Assembly: GCF_003334785.1 (NCBI RefSeq)
Contig: NZ_QOWV01000012.1
Strand: one strand, 5' to 3'
DNA length: 64,000 bases
Source: Escherichia coli
GTDB lineage: Bacteria; Pseudomonadota; Gammaproteobacteria; Enterobacterales; Enterobacteriaceae
This document shows positions 1 through 55,347 of the stretch, piece by piece (the first letter of the stretch is position 1; every line of letters begins with the position of its first letter). The notes below the pieces were generated by a model, which was given only the letters and a program-made list of their open reading frames with translations, made no database searches and was not told the origin of the DNA. The position numbers and the translations under genes were made by a program.

Positions 1-760
1 CCTGCGCACCAAACCGTGCTGCCAGCGCTTCGGCGGCGCGGGCGAGCAGGGTGGTGTCAACGCCGACGGCGACAAACAGCGCGCCCAGTTCCAGATAGCG
101 TTTTGCCAGTTGCTCATTGGCGATCAGGATCCCCGGCGCTTTGCCCGCTTCGCGGATCTGCACGATCGCCTGCTCAATCGCGGCCTGTACTTCCGGGTGC
201 TGAGGATTACCGGCATAACCCATATCGGCGCTCAGATCCGCCGGGCCGATAAACACGCCGTCGACCCCTTCCACGTCCAGAATCTGCGGTAAGTTCTTCA
301 TTGCCTCACGCGTTTCGATCTGCACCAGCACGCACATTTGATCGTTGGCTTTTTGCAGGTAATCAGGAATACGATTCCAGCGCGAGGCTCGGGCCAGCGC
401 ACTGCCCACACCGCGAATACCGGCGGGGGGATAACGGGTGGCGCGTACCGCTTCACGGGCTTCGTCAGCGTTTTGAACCATCGGCACCAGTAAGGTTTGT
501 GTGCCGACATCCAGCAGTTGTTTGATTTGCACCGGATCGTTCCACGACGGACGTACCACCGGCTGGCTGGGGTAGGGCGCAATCGCCTGTAGCTGGGTGA
601 GCACGGTTTGCACGTTATTCGGCGCGTGCTCACCGTCGATCAATAACCAGTCGAATCCTGCTCCGGCCAGTAACTCTGCGCTGTAGCTGCTACTTAGCCC
701 CAGCCATAATCCGATCTGCGGGCGGCCTGCTTTCAGCGCCGCTTTAAAACTGTTTTCCAT
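1..760 (-). CDS. hpaI: 4-hydroxy-2-oxoheptanedioate aldolase HpaI (class II aldolase); 3-prime end cut by window edge
   Basis: Minus-strand reading from ATG (reverse complement of 758-760) gives [33 protein letters not shown]..., recognised as HpaI/HpcH; RBS GGAGAG just upstream; frame runs off window start (about 9 codons missing). Not in the supplied ORF track because it is truncated. Confidence 0.88.
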
Positions 761-770
761 CGTTCTCTCC

Positions 771-1574
771 TTAAACAAAGCGGCAGCTAATGGAGCCCAT
801 GTTGCCGTAATCGACGTGGAAGGTATCGCCCTTACGCGCCGGAACCGGGCGGGTGAACGAACCGCCGAGAATGATTTGCCCGGCTTCCAGTTGTACGTCA
901 TACGGTGCGAGTTTGTTCGCCAGCCAGGCCACGCCGTTTGCCGGATGATTTAGCACACCAGCGGCGACGCCAGTTTCTTCAATCACGCCATTGCGATACA
1001 TCAGGGCGGAGATCCAACGCAGATCCAGTTCGTCTGGTTTGATCGGACGACCGCCGAGGATCACTCCGGCGTTGGCGGCGTTATCAGAAATGGTGTCGAA
1101 CACTTTGCGCGGGCGCTGGGTTTCCGGATCGATGTTGTGGCAGCGGGCGTCGATCAGCTCCAGCGCCGGGATCACGTAGTCCGTGGCGTTGTAGACGTCG
1201 AACAGCGTGCAGTTTGGCCCACGCAGCGGTTTTGCCAGCACAAAAGCCAGCTCCACTTCAATGCGCGGCACGATAAAGCGATCGGTCGGGATATCGCTGC
1301 CATCGTGGAAGAACATGTCGTCCAGCAATGCACCGTAATCTGGCTCGCTGATTTGTGAGCTGGCCTGCATCGCTTTCGAGGTCAGGCCGATTTTGTGGCC
1401 TTTCAGCGTGCGGCCTTCGGCGATTTTCAGTCGGACCCATTCGCGCTGTACGGCGTAGGCGTCTTCAATGGTGATCTCCGGGTAATCCAGCGAGATCGCG
1501 CGGATCTGTTCACGCTGTTTTTCTGCCTGATCCAGACGCTGGGCGATCAGGGTGTGGGTGTGTTTATCGAACAT
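771..1574 (-). CDS. hpaH: 2-oxo-hept-3-ene-1,7-dioate hydratase HpaH
   Basis: ORF 771..1592 translation matches HpaH/HpcG hydratase; start placed at internal ATG (MFDKHTHTL...) which has an AGGA RBS, giving 267 aa. Confidence 0.9.
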
Positions 1575-1641
1575 AGCGATATCCTGTGGCATTGCCGGAT
1601 GCGGCTGCGCCTTATCATCCAGCCTGGAAGCTGGTGCAAAT

Positions 1642-2022
1642 TTATTTAAACAACGCGTGTACGTTGTTCTGTTTGAAATTCAACGTCGGGTGCAGCTCTG
1701 CAATCTCAAATGAAAGCGCCAGGTAACGGCTCTCCATCAGTGAGGCGAAGTGCGTTTTAATCAGATCAAACAGCATTTCGCCTACTTCCTGACGGCTTTC
1801 CAGACTGCGCCCGCTGCCGATTTTTAGCGTCATATGCACAAAGGCGTAATCGTGCTTGCCATCAGCCATTTGCCAGGTATCGATCCAGTGTGCCCGGCTA
1901 CGTATTCCCCCAAGCGGAAAAATCCCCGTCGCCGCCAGTGCGGTGTTAACACTGGCAAACAGCTCAGGTAAGCGGGCTTCTTGACGAATATTTTCAGTAC
2001 ATTCCACGATAAAGTGCGGCAT
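1642..2022 (-). CDS. hpaF: 5-carboxymethyl-2-hydroxymuconate isomerase HpaF
   Basis: 126-aa [25 protein letters not shown]... recognised as CHM isomerase; position in hpaGEDFHI order. Confidence 0.9.
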
Positions 2023-2031
2023 GGTTTTTCC

Positions 2032-2883
2032 TTACGCGGGAAGCGGGAAAACAGCGTTAACCTGACCAGTGCCAGAGCTTGGGAACAGCTCGGTAATAAA
2101 CTCCACCTTGCCGTCGTATTTATCCCAGCCGAGCATCCCCAGCAGCATCACCGTGTCGTGCATATTGCCTTCGCCGTAGCAGTAGTCGGCGTACTCCGGC
2201 AGCATATTGCAGAACTCTTTGAACTGGCCTTCGCGCCACAGCTTCACCACGCGCTCGTCCATCTGGCGGTCGAACTCGCGGGTGTAGCTGTTCATCCCTT
2301 CTTCTGCACGCTGATCGTCAATAAAGCGGTGCGATAACGAACCGCTGGCAAGGACCGCCACGGTGCCGTCGTACTGTTCGATCGCTTTCAGAATCGCTTC
2401 GCCCAGCTTGCGGCTGTCGGCAAAATCATGAACGGTACAGAATGCGGAGATGGAGACCACTTTGAAGTGCTTGTCTTCATTCATGTAGCGCATCGGCACC
2501 AGCGTGCCGTATTCCAGTTTCAGGCTGGGAATGTTGTGCGTTTTTGCCCGCACGCCGAGCTTTAAGGCTTCATCGGCAATTAGCTGCCCCAACTCCGGGT
2601 TGCCCTCGTAGTTGTAGGTCATGTCACGAATAAAATGCGGCAGCTCGTTACTGGTGTAGACGCCTTCAAAATGGTCTGCACAGTTGATGTGATAAGCACT
2701 GTTGACCAGCCAGTGGGTATCGAAAACGATAATGGTATCGACGCCCATTTCCCGGCAACGCTTGCTGATCTCTTTATGCCCGTCGATCGCACCCTGGCGG
2801 CAACCGTGGTTTTTCCCAGGCAGCTCAGAGAGATACATCGACGGTACGTGCGTGATCTTGGCGGCTAACGCTAACTTACCCAT
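2032..2883 (-). CDS. hpaD: 3,4-dihydroxyphenylacetate (homoprotocatechuate) 2,3-dioxygenase HpaD, extradiol LigB-type
   Basis: 283-aa ORF MGKLALAAKITHVPSMYLSELPGKNHGCRQ...; typical size and sequence of HpaD; operon context. Confidence 0.9.
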   Translation of the reverse strand: MGKLALAAKITHVPSMYLSELPGKNHGCRQGAIDGHKEISKRCREMGVDTIIVFDTHWLVNSAYHINCADHFEGVYTSNELPHFIRDMTYNYEGNPELGQLIADEALKLGVRAKTHNIPSLKLEYGTLVPMRYMNEDKHFKVVSISAFCTVHDFADSRKLGEAILKAIEQYDGTVAVLASGSLSHRFIDDQRAEEGMNSYTREFDRQMDERVVKLWREGQFKEFCNMLPEYADYCYGEGNMHDTVMLLGMLGWDKYDGKVEFITELFPSSGTGQVNAVFPLPA

Positions 2884-2884
2884 A

Positions 2885-4351
2885 TCAGACTCCCCATTTC
2901 GGAATTGGATGGTCGCCCATGGAAATGCAGACGTTCTTCATTTCCGCGAACACTTCGAAGCTGTACTCACCGCCTTCACGCCCGGTGCCGGAGGCTTTTA
3001 CGCCGCCAAATGGCTGGCGCAGGTCACGCACGTTCTGGGTGTTGACGAACACCATGCCAGCTTCAATGCCACGCGCCAGGCGTAACACTTTGCTGACATC
3101 CTGTGTCCAGATGTACGACGCGAGGCCGTACTCCACGTCGTTTGCCAGACGTAAGCCTTCGGCTTCGTCTTTAAACGGCAGCAGGCAGGCGACCGGCCCG
3201 AAAATCTCTTCCTGGGCAACGCGCATACGGTTATCTACGTCCGCCAGCACCGTTGGGCGCAGGAAGTTGCCGCCTTTCAGGTGTGCAGGCAGGTCAGACG
3301 GTTTATCCGGGCCGCCCGCCAGCAGGGTTGCGCCTTCTTCAATGCCGAGACGGATATAGCCGGAGACTTTATCCCAGTGTTGCTGGCTGATAAGCGCCCC
3401 AACCTGGGTATTCGGATCGTTCGGATCGCCCACGCGCAGACGGTTGGCGCGTTCGGCAAAGCGTTTAACGAATTCCGGGTAGATGCTTTGCTGAATAAAG
3501 ATGCGCGAACCGGCGGTGCAGCGCTCGCCGTTGATCGAGAAGATGGTGAACAGGGCGGCGTCCAGCGCGCGTTCAATATCGGCATCTTCAAAAATCAGCA
3601 CCGGCGATTTACCGCCCAGTTCCATGGAGTATTTTTTCAGCCCGGCGTTTTTCATGATGTTGCGCCCGGTGGCCGTACCGCCGGTGAACGACACGGCACG
3701 TACGTCATGATGACGAACCAGCGCATCGCCTGCGGTTGCGCCGTAGCCCTGTACCACGTTCAGCACGCCTGCCGGAATACCGGCTTCCAGCGCCAGCTCA
3801 CCCAGGCGGTCAGCGGTCAGCGGGGAGAGTTCCGACATTTTCAGTACCGCGGTATTGCCCAGCGCCAGACACGGCGCGACCTTCCATGTGGCGGTCATAA
3901 ACGGTACGTTCCACGGCGATACCAGCGCACAAACGCCCACCGGCTGCACCAGCGTGTAGTTGAGCATCTTGTCGTCAACCGGATAGGTCTTGCCGTTCAT
4001 CTGCTGGCAGACTTCCGCGAAAAATTCAAAGTTGTGGGAAGCGCGTGGGATCAACACATTTTTGGTCTGATGGATCGGCAGGCCGGTGTCCGCGGTTTCC
4101 ATCGCGGCGATCTCTGGCACGTTCTGGTCGATCAGATCGCCCAGACGGCGCATCAGGCGCGCACGCTCTTTCATCGGCAGATTGGCCCATTTCGGGAACG
4201 CCTCTTTCGCTGCCGCTACCGCCTGATTGATCTCCGCTTCACCGCCAGAGGCCACATCCGCCAGCACTTCACCCGTTGCCGGATTGGTGGTCTGAAAGTA
4301 GTCGTTACCTGCAACATTTTTGCCGTTGATCCAATGATTTACTTTTTTCAT
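2885..4351 (-). CDS. hpaE: 5-carboxymethyl-2-hydroxymuconate semialdehyde dehydrogenase HpaE (NAD-dependent aldehyde dehydrogenase)
   Basis: 488-aa ORF with aldehyde dehydrogenase hallmarks (ELGGKSP, catalytic Cys region GERCTAGSR); operon context. Confidence 0.92.
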   Translation of the reverse strand: MKKVNHWINGKNVAGNDYFQTTNPATGEVLADVASGGEAEINQAVAAAKEAFPKWANLPMKERARLMRRLGDLIDQNVPEIAAMETADTGLPIHQTKNVLIPRASHNFEFFAEVCQQMNGKTYPVDDKMLNYTLVQPVGVCALVSPWNVPFMTATWKVAPCLALGNTAVLKMSELSPLTADRLGELALEAGIPAGVLNVVQGYGATAGDALVRHHDVRAVSFTGGTATGRNIMKNAGLKKYSMELGGKSPVLIFEDADIERALDAALFTIFSINGERCTAGSRIFIQQSIYPEFVKRFAERANRLRVGDPNDPNTQVGALISQQHWDKVSGYIRLGIEEGATLLAGGPDKPSDLPAHLKGGNFLRPTVLADVDNRMRVAQEEIFGPVACLLPFKDEAEGLRLANDVEYGLASYIWTQDVSKVLRLARGIEAGMVFVNTQNVRDLRQPFGGVKASGTGREGGEYSFEVFAEMKNVCISMGDHPIPKWGV

Positions 4352-5637
4352 TTCGCTGTTTCCTCACTCACAATTCGGTTCACCAGGCAGCCCACGCCTT
4401 CTACTTCCACCACTACTTCATCGCCAGGCACCACGTCAGATAAGCCTTTTGGTGTGCCGGTGGCGATCATGTCGCCCGGATTCAGGGTCATAAATTCGCT
4501 TAAGTAGGCGATCAGGAAGGGCACGCTGAAGATCAGATCGGCGGTGGTGCCTTGCTGGCGTAACTCGCCGTTGACGAAGGTGCGAAGGGTCAGATTATGC
4601 GGGTCCGGGATCGCCTCTTTCGGCACGATGGTTGAAAGCATCGGCGTCAGTCCGTCGCGGCTTTTTACCCGCAGGTTAGGGCGGTAGTAGTTTTCCAGAT
4701 AGTCGCGAATGGCGTAGTCGTTACACACGGTGTAGCCCGCGACATAATCCATGGCATCGGCTTCGCTGACGTTACGCGCCTGTTTGCCAATAACTACCAC
4801 CAGCTCCGCTTCATAGTGCATGTATTCAATATTGTTTGGACGCACGGAGGTCTGGTTATCGCCAGTGAGGGTATTTGGCGCTTTCAGGAACACCAGCGGT
4901 TCTTCCGGTGGCTTAAATTCCAGTTCGCTGGCGTGGTCGGCGTAGTTCAGGCCGAGGGCAAACAGCGTGCCGTGCGGGTGTGGCTGCGTTGGGAAGCTCT
5001 TGCGCGTGGTCACTTCACGTTCGTCCACTACCGGATTTTCCAGCGGCGGGAAACCTTCTGCGAGAACACGAACGCGATCGCCTGGCTGTATTTCCACGCG
5101 CGCCTGTGGCGTGCCGAGCAGAATGGCATCGCCTGGATTCAGTGTGGCAAATTCGCTCAGGGCGCTCAGCAACTGCGCGGCGTTACGTTGTAAATCGGCG
5201 GTATTCCAGTGATCGGCAGGACGCCCGTTGATCTCGGTATAGATGGTCAGATTATCGACATTGCTGAGAGCCACGGTTTCGCCAATGGGGCAGAATCCAT
5301 CACGACATTTTGCTTTGATTGCCGGGCGGTAAAAGCTCTCTTCCGGCAGGCTGACGTCGTTAGCCAGCGCATATCCGGCGATGTACTCTGCCGCATCTTC
5401 TTCACGTACTTTCGTCGCCGTTTTTCCCACAATCAGCGCAACAGTCGCACCGCTCAGTACCTTTTCACCCTGTGGAAAGGGAATCGGTTCACCGCAACCA
5501 ATCACCGTATTGCGCGGTTTAATAAACCAGACCGCAGTTTTAGGCGGGGCTTTGTAGGGGGATTGCTGGAACGCTTCCTGCCATGCATCAAGTTGGCTGC
5601 GATGGTTCAACGCTACGGCGAAGATAGTGCCTTTCAT
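4348..5637 (-). CDS. hpaG: bifunctional OPET decarboxylase / HHDD isomerase HpaG (tandem FAH-fold domains)
   Basis: ORF 4348..5643; start placed at ATG with GAGGAG RBS (MKGTIFAVALNHRSQ...), 429 aa; stop overlaps hpaE start (ATGA). Confidence 0.9.
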   Translation of the reverse strand: MKGTIFAVALNHRSQLDAWQEAFQQSPYKAPPKTAVWFIKPRNTVIGCGEPIPFPQGEKVLSGATVALIVGKTATKVREEDAAEYIAGYALANDVSLPEESFYRPAIKAKCRDGFCPIGETVALSNVDNLTIYTEINGRPADHWNTADLQRNAAQLLSALSEFATLNPGDAILLGTPQARVEIQPGDRVRVLAEGFPPLENPVVDEREVTTRKSFPTQPHPHGTLFALGLNYADHASELEFKPPEEPLVFLKAPNTLTGDNQTSVRPNNIEYMHYEAELVVVIGKQARNVSEADAMDYVAGYTVCNDYAIRDYLENYYRPNLRVKSRDGLTPMLSTIVPKEAIPDPHNLTLRTFVNGELRQQGTTADLIFSVPFLIAYLSEFMTLNPGDMIATGTPKGLSDVVPGDEVVVEVEGVGCLVNRIVSEETAK

Positions 5638-5662
5638 TACCACTCCTCGGATTCGATCATCT

Positions 5663-5686
5663 TAATCATTAATATGTTAATGATTA
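5663..5686. promoter_or_regulatory. Perfect inverted repeat TAATCATTAA-tatg-TTAATGATTA in hpaG upstream region; candidate HpaR operator
   Basis: Palindrome read directly in sequence 26 bp upstream of hpaG start, in AT-rich divergent hpaG/hpaR region; assignment to HpaR is inference. Confidence 0.4.
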
Positions 5687-5908
5687 CTTTTATTCCCGAT
5701 TGCGTAGTTTGGCAAAAGTAAGTGATGTAAATGTGATCTAATTAACAAACTATTTACATTTAAAGATAATAAAATATTAAATATCATTAAGTTAATAAAA
5801 TATCATCAATTTTGATAAAATCAGGAATTGCAGGGACAGCGCAGTCCCGGTAACGTGACGATTAACTGTTTCTATATTAATAATTTTGAATTTTTCAGGG
5901 GAAAGATA

Positions 5909-6355
5909 ATGCACGACTCTCTAACCATTGCGTTGCTCCAGGCGCGAGAAGCGGCGATGAGTTATTTTCGCCCAATCGTTAAACGGCATAATTTGACTGA
6001 GCAACAGTGGCGCATCGTGCGTATTCTGGCGGAAAGCCCATCAATGGATTTTCACGATCTGGCGTATCGTGCCTGCATTTTGCGCCCAAGCCTGACCGGG
6101 ATCCTTACGCGGATGGAACGCGACGGTTTAGTGTTGCGATTAAAGCCGATCAATGATCAGCGGAAGCTCTATATCTCGCTGACCAAAGAGGGGCAGGCGC
6201 TGTATAACCGCGCTCAGACACAGATTGAAGAAGCCTATCGGCAGATTGAAGCTCAGTTTACTGCCGAGAAAATGCAACTGTTAACCCATCTGTTAGAGGA
6301 ATTTATTGCTCTGGGCAATTCCCGACAAGAAGACATCCCGGGCGATAATGAATAA
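5909..6355 (+). CDS. hpaR: MarR-family repressor of the hpa meta operon, HpaR
   Basis: ORF 5828..6355; start placed at ATG giving MHDSLTIALLQAREAAMSYFRPIVKRHNLTEQQWRIVRIL... (148 aa) with winged-helix MarR pattern; divergent from hpaG. Confidence 0.88.
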   Translation: MHDSLTIALLQAREAAMSYFRPIVKRHNLTEQQWRIVRILAESPSMDFHDLAYRACILRPSLTGILTRMERDGLVLRLKPINDQRKLYISLTKEGQALYNRAQTQIEEAYRQIEAQFTAEKMQLLTHLLEEFIALGNSRQEDIPGDNE

Positions 6356-16451: not shown

Positions 16452-16925
16452 TTATACGCGAGGGCGCTTGCGGTACAACCATAATCCAGGAATGGAAAGA
16501 CCGATGGATAACGCACCAACAATCGATGAAGCTGTAAGAAAGTTGGTTAACAGGGTAATCATCAACGGTTCGCTGTAACCTAACTGGCTGATTTTTACCG
16601 CCGAAATCATTGCGGTATAAGCCGATATGCCCGGGAACATAGGGATAACGGCCGCCACGGTAAACACTTTCGGATGCGCCAGATACCAGCGCGACCATTG
16701 AATACCAATGGTGCCGACCAGCATAGAAGCCATAAAAGTTGACCACTCAATATTCAGCCCGCTGGTCATTAAGATCATTCGTGAACCATGGCCAATCGCG
16801 CCAAGCAGCGCACACCAGCGTAACGCCCGCACGGGAACGTTGAACACCATCGCAAAGCCGACCGCTGGAATGGCGGCGAGGATCATATCCTGCGCCAATG
16901 CAAACAGAAACTCGATCACACCCAT
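16452..16925 (-). CDS. yjjB: threonine/serine exporter-family inner membrane protein YjjB (ThrE C-terminal-like)
   Basis: ORF 16452..16940; start at [12 protein letters not shown] (157 aa); hydrophobic multi-TM; overlaps yjjP by 10 nt. Confidence 0.88.
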
Positions 16926-17686
16926 CCGCGTAGCCCCCAAATCGTCAGTGCCATCACTACGCCGACGCAGGTAGCCAGCGTCAGCAGACTGGCGATCGCC
17001 CAGCGTGCCAGTCCGGTATTGATGTGGCCTTTAAACATATCGGCGACGGCATTAATCAACGGAAAGCCCGGCACCAGCAGCAGAACGCTGGCGGCCATCG
17101 CAATGGTGGGTGTATCGCTGAAAGTGGGGAGTTGCAAAAGCAATCCGGAAATGGTGGTGGCGGCGAAAGCGGTAAGGCAAAAGTTGATCTGTGGATGAAG
17201 ATGACGTTGTGCCAGCAGCTGGCGGATATACATCGCGGTCGTACTGGCAAAGAAGGTGATGACGGCACCATCCCAGCCACCGTTATTGAGTTTACAGAAA
17301 CAGGCGCAAGAAAGGCCAACCATTAAGGCTACCAGCCATCTTGGGTAACGTAATGGCTGAATTTGGCTAAATCGTTTCTCTACGCCTTTGTAATCCAGCA
17401 GATGATGCTCCGCAAGAATCACAATGTGCTGGACTTCAGTCACCACATGCATATTAATGCCGCGATCGTGATTTTTTCGTGTCGATGTCAGGCATTGCCC
17501 ATCTTTAATAGTTGTCAGCACTATGGCGTTCGAAGAGATAGAACTTTCGACGCTGTCCATTCCCAACGCCCGACCCAGTCGTGAGGAAAGCTCATCAACC
17601 AACGCGCTTTCCGCACCATGTTGCAAAAGAAATAATCCACACTGGATACAAAGCCGCGTTACGGCTCGCTGTTGCTCAGTTTGCAT
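16916..17686 (-). CDS. yjjP: threonine/serine exporter-family inner membrane protein YjjP (ThrE N-terminal-like)
   Basis: ORF 16916..17749; start at [15 protein letters not shown] (256 aa); paired with yjjB as a split ThrE-type transporter. Confidence 0.88.
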
Positions 17687-18306
17687 AACTCGCCCTTTGT
17701 CATAGACGTGCTGCGTATTGTTCAGATAATGAGAATCCATTTGTATCATGAAGCACGGTTGTTTTGCGGTAGGTTAAGATCAAAATTGCGCTGATTAATC
17801 CTGGTTATCGGGACAAGCTCGGTGATAAAAAGCGAATTATCTCTCGCCGCAAACAAACTATCACATGAATATTATCACTATAATGAATTTATTGTTTTAG
17901 CCTTTACGGGTCAGGATAATAGATAGCTGGGCGCGTTTTTTAGTGTTAACAAGTTAAAATCATCAGATTTTATTGAATAAATATTGATTGTGTGATTCCC
18001 GCATTCTGCGGGAAGGGATATCATTTAATTATAAATTAAATGAATGTGATTTCTGTTTTTCATTAAGTATTCCTAACAACTTAATGTAGATATTTTAAAT
18101 GTCTCCAGGCTATTTCACCAGGTTATCATTTGATGCTAACCTTCTGACACATGCAGTGGAGTTGTTGTGCAGCAGGAGTATGCTGATATGAAAGTGAATG
18201 CTAAGGATAATTTATTCGCTTAATCTATTAATTTGCTGGAAACATTTAAGGAATGAATATCCTGAATAAACCATCATAATTTTTAGACAGTGGATGTGGA
18301 GGAAAT

Positions 18307-19032
18307 ATGTTGCCAGGATGCTGCAAAAATGGAATTGTTATCAGTAAAATACCTGTTATGCAAGCAGGGTTAAAAGAGGTCATGAGGACTCACTTCCCTG
18401 AATATGAAATAATATCCAGCGCCTCTGCGGAGGACCTTACCTTATTACAATTACGTCGTTCCGGATTAGTCATTGCTGATTTAGCCGGTGAAAGTGAAGA
18501 TCCACGTTCTGTTTGTGAACATTATTATTCTTTAATCTCACAATATCGGGAAATTCACTGGGTTTTCATGGTGTCACGCTCCTGGTATTCCCAGGCAGTA
18601 GAACTGCTCATGTGCCCTACGGCGACGTTATTGTCTGATGTTGAACCCATTGAGAATCTGGTCAAGACCGTACGTTCCGGCAATACGCACGCAGAGCGTA
18701 TCAGCGCCATGCTGACCTCTCCGGCAATGACTGAAACTCATGATTTTAGCTATCGCTCCGTCATTCTCACTCTTTCAGAGCGCAAGGTACTGCGGCTATT
18801 AGGTAAAGGATGGGGCATCAACCAGATAGCTTCATTGCTTAAGAAAAGTAATAAAACTATCAGCGCCCAAAAAAACAGTGCGATGCGTCGACTGGCAATT
18901 CACAGCAACGCTGAAATGTATGCATGGATAAATAGCGCGCAGGGTGCAAGAGAACTTAACTTGCCTTCTGTTTATGGAGATGCCGCAGAATGGAACACAG
19001 CCGAATTAAGAAGAGAAATGTCGCACTCATAG
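18307..19032 (+). CDS. yjjQ: LuxR/FixJ-family transcriptional regulator YjjQ
   Basis: 241-aa ORF with C-terminal LuxR HTH ([21 protein letters not shown]); long AT-rich upstream region. Confidence 0.92.
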
Positions 19033-19667
19033 AAAAATGCGTCATGAGTAGTATCGGTATTGAGAGTTTATTCAGAAAGTTTGCGGGCAACCCTTATAAG
19101 CTCCATACCTATACCAGTCAGGAGTCATTTCAGGATGCCATGTCGCGGATCTCGTTTGCGGCGGTCATTTTTTCTTTTTCTGCCATGAGAAGTGAGCGCA
19201 GAGAGGGATTATCTTGCCTGACTGAACTGGCGATTAAGTTTCCGCGTACCCGGCGTTTAGTTATTGCGGATGATGATATTGAAGCTCGGCTGATTGGTTC
19301 ATTGTCGCCATCACCGCTGGACGGTGTATTAAGTAAAGCGTCAACGCTGGAGATTTTTCATCAGGAACTCTTTTTGTCATTAAATGGTGTACGTCAGGCG
19401 ACCGACCGACTGAACAATCAGTGGTACATTAACCAAAGCCGGACGCTAAGCCCGACGGAGAGAGAAATATTGCGCTTTATGTCGCGTGGCTACTCAATGA
19501 CACAAATTGCCGAGCAGCTTAAACGCAATATCAAAACGATCCGCGCGCATAAATTTAATGTGATGTCGAAACTGGGCGTCAGTTCTGATGCAGGATTGTT
19601 GGAGGCCGCAGATATTCTGTTATGTATGCGGCATTGCGAAGCAAGTAATGTGTTGCATCCCTATTAA
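18990..19667 (+). CDS. bglJ: LuxR-family transcriptional activator BglJ
   Basis: 225-aa ORF, C-terminal LuxR HTH ([21 protein letters not shown]); overlaps yjjQ 3-prime end by 43 nt in a different frame. Confidence 0.92.
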
Positions 19668-20908: not shown

Positions 20909-20995
20909 TGGTGCGAGGGGGGGGACTTGAACCCCCACGTCCGTAAGGACACTAACACCTGAAGCTAGCGCGTCTACCAATTCCGCCACCTTCGC
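20909..20995 (-). tRNA. leuQ: tRNA-Leu (anticodon CAG)
   Basis: Reverse complement reads GCGAAGGTGGCGGAATTGGTAGACGCGCTAGCTTCAGGTGTTAGTGTCCTTACGGACGTGGGGGTTCAAGTCCCCCCCCTCGCACCA, the E. coli tRNA-Leu(CAG) with encoded CCA; single copy here. Confidence 0.95.
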
Positions 20996-53308: not shown

Positions 53309-54025
53309 TTAATCTTCCAGATCACCGCAGAAGCGATAACCTTCACCGTGGATGGTGGCGATGATTTCCGGCGTATCCGGCGTAGATTCGAAATGTTTAC
53401 GAATACGGCGGATCGTCACGTCTACAGTACGGTCGTGTGGTTTCAGCTCACGGCCGGTCATTTTCTTCAGCAGTTCAGCACGGGACTGAATTTTGCCTGG
53501 GTTTTCACAGAAGTGAAGCATGGCGCGGAACTCGCTGCGCGGCAGCTTGTACTGCTCGCCATCAGGGCCGATCAACGAACGGCTGTTGATGTCCAGTTCC
53601 CAACCATTGAACTTGTAGCTTTCAACGCTACGACGTTCTTCGCTGACAGTACCCAGATTCATGGTACGGGACAGCAGGTTGCGTGCACGAATCGTCAGTT
53701 CACGCGGGTTGAACGGTTTGGTGATGTAGTCATCTGCACCGATTTCGAGGCCGAGAATTTTATCGACTTCGTTGTCACGGCCAGTCAGGAACATCAACGC
53801 AACATTCGCCTGCTCGCGCAGTTCACGCGCTAACAGAAGACCGTTCTTACCCGGCAGATTGATATCCATGATCACCAGGTTGATGTCATATTCAGAGAGG
53901 ATCTGATGCATTTCCGCGCCATCTGTCGCTTCGAAAACATCATAGCCTTCCGCTTCGAAAATACTTTTCAACGTGTTGCGTGTTACCAACTCGTCTTCAA
54001 CGATAAGAATGTGCGGGGTCTGCAT
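53309..54025 (-). CDS. arcA: aerobic respiration control response regulator ArcA (OmpR family)
   Basis: 238-aa [46 protein letters not shown]...; recognised ArcA. Confidence 0.97.
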
Positions 54026-54120
54026 GTTTGCTACCTAAATTGCCAACTAAATCGAAACAGGAAGTACAAAAGTCCCTGACCTGCCTGATGCATGCTGCAA
54101 ATTAACATGATCGGCGTAAC

Positions 54121-54261
54121 ATGACTAAAGTACGTAATTGCGTTCTTGATGCACTTTCCATCAACGTCAACAACATCATTAGCTTGGTCGTGGGTACTTT
54201 CCCTCAGGACCCGACAGTGTCAAAAACGGCTGTCATCCTAACCATTTTAACAGCAACATAA
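54121..54261 (+). CDS. yjjY: small protein YjjY (46 aa)
   Basis: ATG..TAA ORF read by hand: MTKVRNCVLDALSINVNNIISLVVGTFPQDPTVSKTAVILTILTAT; below the ORF-track size cutoff; lies in arcA upstream region as in K-12. Confidence 0.6.
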   Translation: MTKVRNCVLDALSINVNNIISLVVGTFPQDPTVSKTAVILTILTAT

Positions 54262-54660
54262 CAGGCTAAGAGGGGCCGGACACCCAATAAAACTACGCTT
54301 CGTTGACATATATCAAGTTCAATTGTAGCACGTTAACAGTTTGATGAAATCATCGTATCTAAATGCTAGCTTTCGTCACATTATTTTAATAATCCAACTA
54401 GTTGCATCATACAACTAATAAACGTGGTGAATCCAATTGTCGAGATTTATTTTTTATAAAATTATCCTAAGTAAACAGAAGGATATGTAGCATTTTTTAA
54501 CAATTCAACCGTTAGTACAGTCAGGAAATAGTTTAGCCTTTTTTAAGCTAAGTAAAGGGCTTTTTCTGCGACTTACGTTAAGGATTTGTAAATTCGCACC
54601 GCGTAATAAGTTGACAGTGATCACCCTGTTCGCGGTCATTTGGTCAAGAAGAGTGGCAAT

Positions 54661-55347
54661 ATGCGTATAACGATTATTCTGGTCGCACCCGCCAGAGCAG
54701 AAAATATTGGGGCAGCGGCGCGGGCAATGAAAACGATGGGGTTTAGCGAACTGCGGATTGTCGATAGTCAGGCACATCTGGAGCCAGTCACTCGCTGGGT
54801 CGCACATGGATCTGGTGATATTATTGATAATATTAAAGTTTTCCCGACACTGGTTGAATCGTTACACGATGTCGATTTCACTGTCGCCACCACTGCGCGC
54901 AGTCGGGCGAAATATCATTACTACGCCACGCCAGTTGAACTGGTGCCGCTGTTAGAGGAAAAATCTTCATGGATGAGCCATGCCGCGCTGGTGTTTGGTC
55001 GCGAAGATTCCGGGTTGACTAACGAAGAGTTAGCGTTGGCTGACGTTCTTACTGGTGTGCCGATGGTGGCGGATTATCCTTCGCTCAATCTGGGGCAGGC
55101 AGTGATGGTCTATTGCTATCAATTAGCAACATTAATACAACAACCGACGAAAAGTGACACAACGGCAGACCAACATCAACTGCAAGCTTTACGCGAACGA
55201 GTCATGGCATTGCTGACGACTCTGGCAGTGGCAGATGACATAAAACTGGTCGACTGGTTACAGCAACGCCTGGGGCTTTTAGAGCAACGAGACACGGCAA
55301 TGTTGCACCGTTTGCTGCATGATATTGAAAAAAATATCACCAAATAA
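54661..55347 (+). CDS. lasT: SpoU/TrmH-family RNA 2-prime-O-methyltransferase LasT (YjtD)
   Basis: ORF 54640..55347 (TTG); start at ATG giving MRITIILVAPARAENIGAAARAMKTMGF (228 aa); SPOUT fold pattern. Confidence 0.9.
   Translation: MRITIILVAPARAENIGAAARAMKTMGFSELRIVDSQAHLEPVTRWVAHGSGDIIDNIKVFPTLVESLHDVDFTVATTARSRAKYHYYATPVELVPLLEEKSSWMSHAALVFGREDSGLTNEELALADVLTGVPMVADYPSLNLGQAVMVYCYQLATLIQQPTKSDTTADQHQLQALRERVMALLTTLAVADDIKLVDWLQQRLGLLEQRDTAMLHRLLHDIEKNITK

Follow-up and report, generated by a model that had tools for sequence, protein, structure and literature searches.

The AT-rich divergent spacer between yjjP and yjjQ-bglJ of Escherichia coli, very probably the known H-NS-silenced and LeuO-counteracted region, with a conservation map

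Several regulatory regions of Escherichia coli, such as the promoter regions of bgl, leuO and cas, are AT-rich, bound by H-NS, silent in the laboratory and opened by a specific antagonist, LeuO or BglJ-RcsB, and they can also be activated by IS insertions into the regulatory DNA. The region upstream of yjjQ-bglJ resembles these systems in all of these respects but differs from them in that one spacer serves two divergent units and in that no natural inducing signal is known. Its control is not a new finding: the action of H-NS and LeuO on yjjQ-bglJ and on the divergent yjjP is named in the title of Stratmann, Madhusudan and Schnetz (2008, J Bacteriol 190:926). The statement of an earlier note on this DNA, that the operon is repressed by H-NS and activated by LeuO in K-12, is found again in two further papers, according to which H-NS repression is dominant under laboratory conditions (PMC5025477) and yjjQ-bglJ is expressed in hns stpA mutants (PMC3950696). 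Activation by LeuO gives too little BglJ to close a proposed feedback loop (PMC5025477). In genomic SELEX the divergent spacer was bound by the RpoD holoenzyme and is marked "HNS" (PMC3946193). In a ChAP-seq data set (S2 Table of PMC4720273), where "bound" means bound in at least one of the strains K-12, SE11 and SE15, yjjP, bglJ (unit yjjQ-bglJ) and fhuF are H-NS-bound, whereas the neighbours yjjB, dnaT and dnaC are not. The same study found that regulatory spacers bound by H-NS diverge faster in general (PMC4720273).

The window, that is the whole 64-kb stretch of E. coli DNA analysed here, contains this locus. On the minus strand lie yjjA-dnaC-dnaT-yjjB-yjjP, followed on the plus strand by yjjQ-bglJ and fhuF. 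This is the gene order of K-12, and the proteins YjjP, YjjQ and BglJ are 100% identical to those of K-12 (the genes yjjP, yjjQ and bglJ differ by 0.1–1.0%). A 751-bp query across the region matched 5424 of 5426 complete E. coli genomes, with an identity of 100% for Z1323CEC0018, a strain from chicken, and of 97.5% for a K-12 derivative. We therefore regard it as very probable that the region is the known divergent spacer between yjjP(-yjjB) and yjjQ-bglJ, silenced by H-NS and counteracted by LeuO. The evidence supports the view that both the locus and its regulation were already known and that the earlier note had read them correctly, with three corrections which concern the term leader, the length and the hairpin.

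The earlier note had described a leader of about 560 bp from 17750 to 18306. The left border was set where the longest yjjP ORF ends, 63 nt (17687–17749) past the start annotated both in RefSeq and in K-12, which corresponds to window position 17686. For this reason two lengths can be given: 557 bp if the longest ORF is taken as the border, in agreement with the earlier figure, and 620 bp by current annotation (618 bp in K-12), with which that figure does not agree. In other Escherichia species the frame of the long ORF is broken by 1-nt indels, which supports the shorter RefSeq start. Leader is furthermore a misnomer. Since the flanking units yjjP and yjjQ-bglJ are divergent, the region is the spacer of two transcription units, a promoter and regulatory region common to yjjQ-bglJ and to yjjP on the opposite strand, and not simply a leader. 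The abstract of the original K-12 study reportedly gives the intergenic region as 555 bp, with H-NS binding to the AT-rich centre distal to both promoters; the LeuO sites are said to lie at the centre too, where they are distal to the yjjQ promoters and overlap the yjjP promoter. These 555 bp presumably rest on the older yjjP start in K-12 and equal our 557-bp interval minus the 2-bp length difference to K-12.

The marked AT-richness was borne out by a sliding-window analysis. GC content is 0.341 in 17750–18306 compared to 0.523 in the whole window. No separate block of this size in the 64 kb has so little GC: the 557-bp windows which reach an equally low value make up 0.25% of the total, and every one of them overlaps the interval (minimum 0.327, start 17859). 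The flanking genes have a GC content of 0.520 (yjjP), 0.449 (yjjQ) and 0.457 (bglJ). Over 557 bp, a GC content below 0.40 is reached in just one further block of the window, at about 53900–54900 (minimum 0.372, start 54036). In a collinear annotated strain, 50 kb contain 52 annotated gaps with a median of 73 bp, and none is longer than the spacer; the next ones in length measure 516 and 392 bp. The description as ORF-poor holds as well. Six ORFs of 30–40 aa overlap the interval, and the records listed annotate no feature inside the spacer other than one strain's IS1. As genes, the small spacer ORFs (30–37 aa) were rejected, as they have no ribosome-binding site and are unannotated in the RefSeq records listed; the frame of the 30-aa ORF at 18099–18191 shifts in other Escherichia species. 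The several A/T tracts that had been noticed are also there (ten tracts of at least 4 nt in 17750–18306 versus 5.4 expected per 557 bp window-wide), though this excess of about twice the window average is what base composition alone gives.

Of the signals which can be associated with H-NS binding, AT-richness is the robust one, unlike curvature or the nucleation motif. The nucleation motif TCGATAAATT has no match with up to one mismatch in the 620-bp spacer. Allowing two mismatches, four matches are found there versus 77 in 64 kb (about 0.75 expected per 620 bp), a number explained by the AT content. Curvature prediction, proposed earlier as a check, gave no support: in a rough wedge model the mean is at the 80th percentile but no higher than in composition-matched shuffles, with a local peak at 17760–17790. 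On the motif scan and this rough negative, the spacer was rejected as intrinsically curved nucleation DNA. The second check, H-NS occupancy, came out positive, because the spacer or its genes are bound in both genomic SELEX (PMC3946193) and ChAP-seq (PMC4720273). An AT content far above the local average together with reported H-NS binding thus favours the first reading of this DNA as H-NS-silenced. The strains behind the H-NS and LeuO data are K-12, SE11 and SE15; from K-12, the DNA studied here differs by 9% in the central 200 bp.

The core site of LeuO spans 19 bp and is palindromic, with a 5-bp gap between its two 7-bp halves, and the sites of the cas and leuO promoters are almost the same (PMC6698644). 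In the K-12 spacers we found the palindromes ATATTCA-TACTG-TGAATAT (cas) and ATATTGA-TTTGG-TGAATAT (leuO), and from these two sites only we derived the search motif ATATTCA-N5-TGAATAT. Matches to this two-site motif are enriched in the spacer, with 13 at 9/14 or better (5.3 ± 2.2 in composition-matched shuffles) and five at 10/14 or better (1.0 in shuffles), corresponding to a P of about 0.001–0.004 against shuffles. Such an enrichment, resting on a two-site motif, would fit control by LeuO. The putative site at 17981–17999 has as its left half the ATATTGA of the leuO site.

For yjjQ-bglJ a consensus scan predicts a sigma-70 promoter (Table 1), and the same hexamers, CTGATA-17-GATAAT, are printed in the SELEX paper (PMC3946193). 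Neither hexamer varies across seven Escherichia sequences, E. albertii among them, and the candidate -10 with its downstream bases (AAGGATAAnnAATTC...GTCTATT) is kept in Citrobacter and Salmonella. If this promoter is used, the transcribed leader of yjjQ would be only about 90 nt long. For yjjP, the family-wide alignment suggests a promoter other than the SELEX best match, namely an extended -10 at 17748–17740; the family-wide invariant bases (T62, T64 and C67 of the alignment) correspond to the G of TG and to A2 and A4 of the TACAAA hexamer. The invariant GATCAA is situated about 45–50 nt upstream of the yjjP start predicted in this way. Within the cross-genus conserved block upstream of the yjjQ promoter, TATTCCTA (18068–18075) is a perfect match to wwTTCykA, the RcsB-type half-site of BglJ-RcsB and RcsAB boxes. 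It may serve as a lead for autoregulation or Rcs input and not beyond this, because chance alone would give about one match in the spacer. The yjjQ gene is preceded by a Shine-Dalgarno sequence.

Table 1. Features of the yjjP / yjjQ-bglJ spacer and its flanking genes in window coordinates; promoters, LeuO-like sites and modules are predictions.
Feature	Position	Strand	Remarks
yjjP CDS	16916..17686	-	256 aa, annotated start MQTEQQ..., first gene of yjjP-yjjB
yjjP / yjjQ-bglJ divergent regulatory spacer	17687..18306		620 bp, GC 0.347
yjjP-proximal conserved module	17687..17810	-	124 bp; 0 differences from K-12; Escherichia identity 0.87-0.90
Putative extended -10 of yjjP	17740..17748	-	TG-A-TACAAA; family-wide alignment of yjjP-proximal DNA
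GATCAA, candidate factor site	17778..17783		has Dam GATC; invariant in 15 species of 11 genera
Hypervariable AT-rich centre	17811..18010		18 differences from K-12 in 200 bp (9%); 13-23 between differing E. coli haplotypes
IS1 target site, strain Z1324SEC0014 (swine)	17845..17854		10 bases, CGCCGCAAAC, duplicated at junction
Putative LeuO-core-like 7-5-7 site	17981..17999		ATATTGA-TTGTG-TGATTCC, 10/14; abuts hairpin
Polymorphic perfect palindrome/hairpin	17996..18014		TTCCCGCA-TTC-TGCGGGAA, 8-bp stem
Perfect AT-rich palindrome	18021..18043		TCATTTAATT-ATA-AATTAAATGA, directly beside GC hairpin
Best-match promoter toward yjjP	18035..18063	-	ATGAAA-17-TTTAAT; consensus match, printed in PMC3946193
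Cross-genus conserved block upstream of yjjQ promoter	18060..18102		ATTAAGTATTyCTAAy...TTTAGnTnTTTTAA
Candidate sigma-70 promoter of yjjQ-bglJ	18183..18211	+	CTGATA-17-GATAAT, consensus scan
Putative LeuO-core-like site, best match in 64 kb	18242..18260		ACATTTA-AGGAA-TGAATAT, 12/14
yjjQ Shine-Dalgarno GGAGG	18298..18302	+	GGAG invariant, fifth base nearly so, 17 species
yjjQ, LuxR-type regulator	18307..19032	+	100% protein identity to K-12
bglJ, LuxR-type regulator, RcsB partner	18990..19667	+	43-nt overlap with yjjQ; 100% K-12 identity

That AT-rich DNA precedes the LuxR-family genes yjjQ-bglJ is thus confirmed, the identity of both genes following from their 100% protein identity to K-12. 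The same arrangement is widespread in the family. Via YjjQ relatives, the order yjjP / yjjQ-bglJ / fhuF was found in about 80 Enterobacteriaceae species, with spacers of 387–709 bp and a GC content of 0.32–0.44 where no genes are inserted (yjjP in these species has 0.50–0.61). Therefore, the long AT-rich spacer must be regarded as ancestral and not as recently acquired.

Within the spacer, conservation is very uneven, which suggests a division into three modules. Compared with the orthologous K-12 region (Stratmann 2008), which has the same flanking genes, all differences fall into the central 200 bp, among them three changes which perfect a palindrome here. No difference at all is found in the other 420 bp, made up of 124 bp on the yjjP side and 296 bp on the yjjQ side, which points to strong purifying selection on both gene-proximal modules. 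In the alignment of Escherichia species the variable centre extends from 17811 to about 18060 with pairwise identities of 0.50–0.75, and the right conserved module covers about 18060–18306 with 0.72–0.93. Even among seven E. coli strains there are four central haplotypes, differing from each other at 8–23 positions. The GC content of the centre, in contrast, is constant at 0.32–0.36 in every Escherichia. The centre keeps its composition and not its sequence, the pattern predicted for a platform of H-NS binding. It also agrees with the faster divergence of H-NS-bound regulatory spacers noted in PMC4720273.

A small hairpin near 17998 had also been mentioned in the earlier note. It is indeed present, CCCGCATTCTGCGGG at 17998–18012 being part of the larger palindrome 17996–18014 (-12.2 kcal/mol; z-scores relative to shuffles of -2.5 for the plus and -3.5 for the minus strand), but it does not qualify as a conserved element. 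K-12 has GATT-TTGCATTCTGCGGGAA instead, with a degraded left arm and -4.1 as against -13.1 kcal/mol, and in other Escherichia species the hairpin is absent, with unrelated A/T-rich sequence at the site. Of 5426 E. coli genomes, at least 1426 (26%) have a 36-mer with the perfect palindrome at 34–36 identical bases, 1421 of them at 99% identity or more, and 810 have the K-12 form. With a 71-nt query around the hairpin, 1977 of the 5426 genomes match at 95% identity or more and 2897 at 90–95%; in five genomes sampled the palindrome is intact in all three above 95% and degraded in both below this value. Strain PMV-1 keeps it with a substitution in the loop. No other 40 bp of the spacer are as poorly conserved as those which hold the hairpin. 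Its alleles differ by three clustered changes (TT-TTGCA versus TTCCCGCA), through which the left arm becomes the exact complement of the right one, and the closest outgroup resembles the imperfect form. Three clustered changes which perfect an imperfect inverted repeat let us infer a template-switch (quasi-palindrome) mutation.

The hairpin shares one trait with REP palindromes and intrinsic terminators, being a short GC-rich inverted repeat in intergenic DNA. It differs from them in having no U-tract, in occurring nearly always at a single place per genome, and in being polymorphic and confined to part of E. coli. A Rho-independent terminator was rejected, as the stem is followed by GGGAUAUC on the plus and by UCACACAA on the minus strand and a terminator scan makes no call. 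Neither is it a REP/BIME or another dispersed repeat (a 36-nt query finds a median of one and a maximum of two places per genome), and an Rfam search of 17400–18700 gave no match at E values up to 1. The 7-5-7 geometry would fit a LeuO core site, but TTCCCGC shares only one of seven bases with the half-site derived above, so this candidate was also dismissed. Given the missing U-tract, the negative Rfam search and the single copy, the hairpin is most likely a non-functional quasi-palindrome, perfected in one lineage within the unconstrained centre.

Insertions at the spacer are known from nature and experiment. A natural IS1 is present in the spacer of strain Z1324SEC0014 (locus L003, 1538–2934). 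During evolution in the mouse gut the spacer was a recurrent target of adaptive IS insertions, which raise yjjP expression about 2-fold aerobically (PMC5094792, PMC4674774). In K. pneumoniae and C. amalonaticus about 2.6 kb lie between yjjP and yjjQ, with ORFs which read as pobA-pobR (L071, 1653–3735, and L010, 1679–3747; pobA for 4-hydroxybenzoate 3-monooxygenase and an AraC-type pobR). An equal spacing of 2.6 kb is seen in other Klebsiella species, in C. sedlakii, in Kluyvera and Raoultella and in a few further genera, which may share this arrangement. In the two species checked, both sub-spacers flanking pobA-pobR stay AT-rich, and the yjjP-proximal module remains beside yjjP where pobA-pobR split yjjP from yjjQ.

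Elsewhere in the window, one tRNA-Leu(CAG) gene is located at 20909–20995 between yjjZ and rsmC. There are two copies in the otherwise collinear Z1323CEC0018 and three (leuV, leuP and leuQ) in K-12, hence this tandem tRNA array varies in copy number. Positions 1–6355 hold, by collinearity with an annotated strain, the hpa cluster for 4-hydroxyphenylacetate degradation, hpaI through hpaR, beside tsr. K-12 is not known to have this cluster.

Could the region mainly be a long transcribed 5' leader of yjjQ-bglJ, with a cis-acting RNA such as an attenuator, a riboswitch or a terminator hairpin? Both the hairpin and the AT palindrome beside it form better folds than shuffled sequences (z -2.3 to -3.9), and one terminator-like site exists on the minus strand at 17848–17831. 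However, the only promoter-like site invariant in the genus lies about 95 nt from the start codon and thereby downstream of the hairpin. The hairpin itself has no U-tract on either strand and no Rfam match, occurs in K-12 only in degraded form and in other Escherichia species not at all, and the segment around it is the least conserved part of the spacer, so that an RNA leader is highly improbable. Just as little credence can be given to the idea that the AT-rich DNA is what remains of a horizontally acquired or decayed sequence, for instance a dead gene or the scar of a mobile element, to which H-NS binds incidentally. It is true that yjjQ and bglJ are below the local GC as well (0.45–0.46), that pobA-pobR between yjjP and yjjQ in other genera mark the site as one which accepts insertions, and that one strain carries an IS1 there. 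Against this, gene order and long AT-rich spacer are ancestral across about 80 species, and the gene-proximal modules, without any difference from K-12, are under strong purifying selection. Furthermore, tblastn gave no signal of pobA, pobR or another gene relic in the E. coli spacer, and the repeat searches show no repeated element.

A functional role of the 19-bp palindrome deserves somewhat more attention. It might be an allele-specific protein site or a cruciform which alters the assembly of H-NS or LeuO, and yjjQ-bglJ and/or yjjPB would then be regulated unlike in K-12. The allele is common (at least 1426 of 5426 genomes), it is kept in PMV-1 despite the loop substitution, its geometry is that of the LeuO core site (PMC6698644), it adjoins the LeuO-like half-site ATATTGA at 17981, and the spacer was hit repeatedly by adaptive IS insertions in the mouse gut. 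On the other hand, its half-sites share one of seven bases with the putative LeuO core ATATTCA/TGAATAT, the stretch around it is the least conserved, neither K-12, in which the regulation was defined, nor other Escherichia species have it, and the three clustered perfecting changes look like the product of a neutral template-switch mutation. Altogether we consider such a function quite unlikely. A broader version would be that the sharply bounded hypervariable centre, including the palindrome allele carried by roughly a quarter to a third of E. coli, does not drift neutrally but tunes the silencing of yjjQ-bglJ and of the yjjPB exporter by H-NS and LeuO in a strain-specific manner. This too is doubtful, but the recurrent IS insertions in the mouse gut and the natural IS1 at 17845–17854 make it slightly more plausible. 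If true, it would fit the recurrent selection of IS insertions in the mouse gut and the use of the spacer as a host-informative marker.

The reading which we prefer remains that of the known divergent spacer under H-NS and LeuO. H-NS would coat the AT-rich DNA and, under laboratory conditions, silence the promoter at either end, and the LysR-type regulator LeuO would bind within the spacer and counteract H-NS. One end would be formed by the yjjP-proximal conserved module of about 120 bp. The yjjQ-proximal module of about 300 bp would carry the sigma-70 promoter, a short 5' UTR and the ribosome-binding site. Between them, about 200 bp in which the AT content is maintained and the sequence is free may provide a platform for low-specificity binding of H-NS.

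The locus is thus a textbook-style case of H-NS silencing and LeuO anti-silencing, acting on YjjQ, a repressor of flhDC, and on BglJ, the partner of RcsB. Its confirmation here adds the correct annotation of this window. The modest addition to the biology of the region is the conservation map, which marks the bases that are likely to matter and indicates that K-12 is unrepresentative of the central segment.
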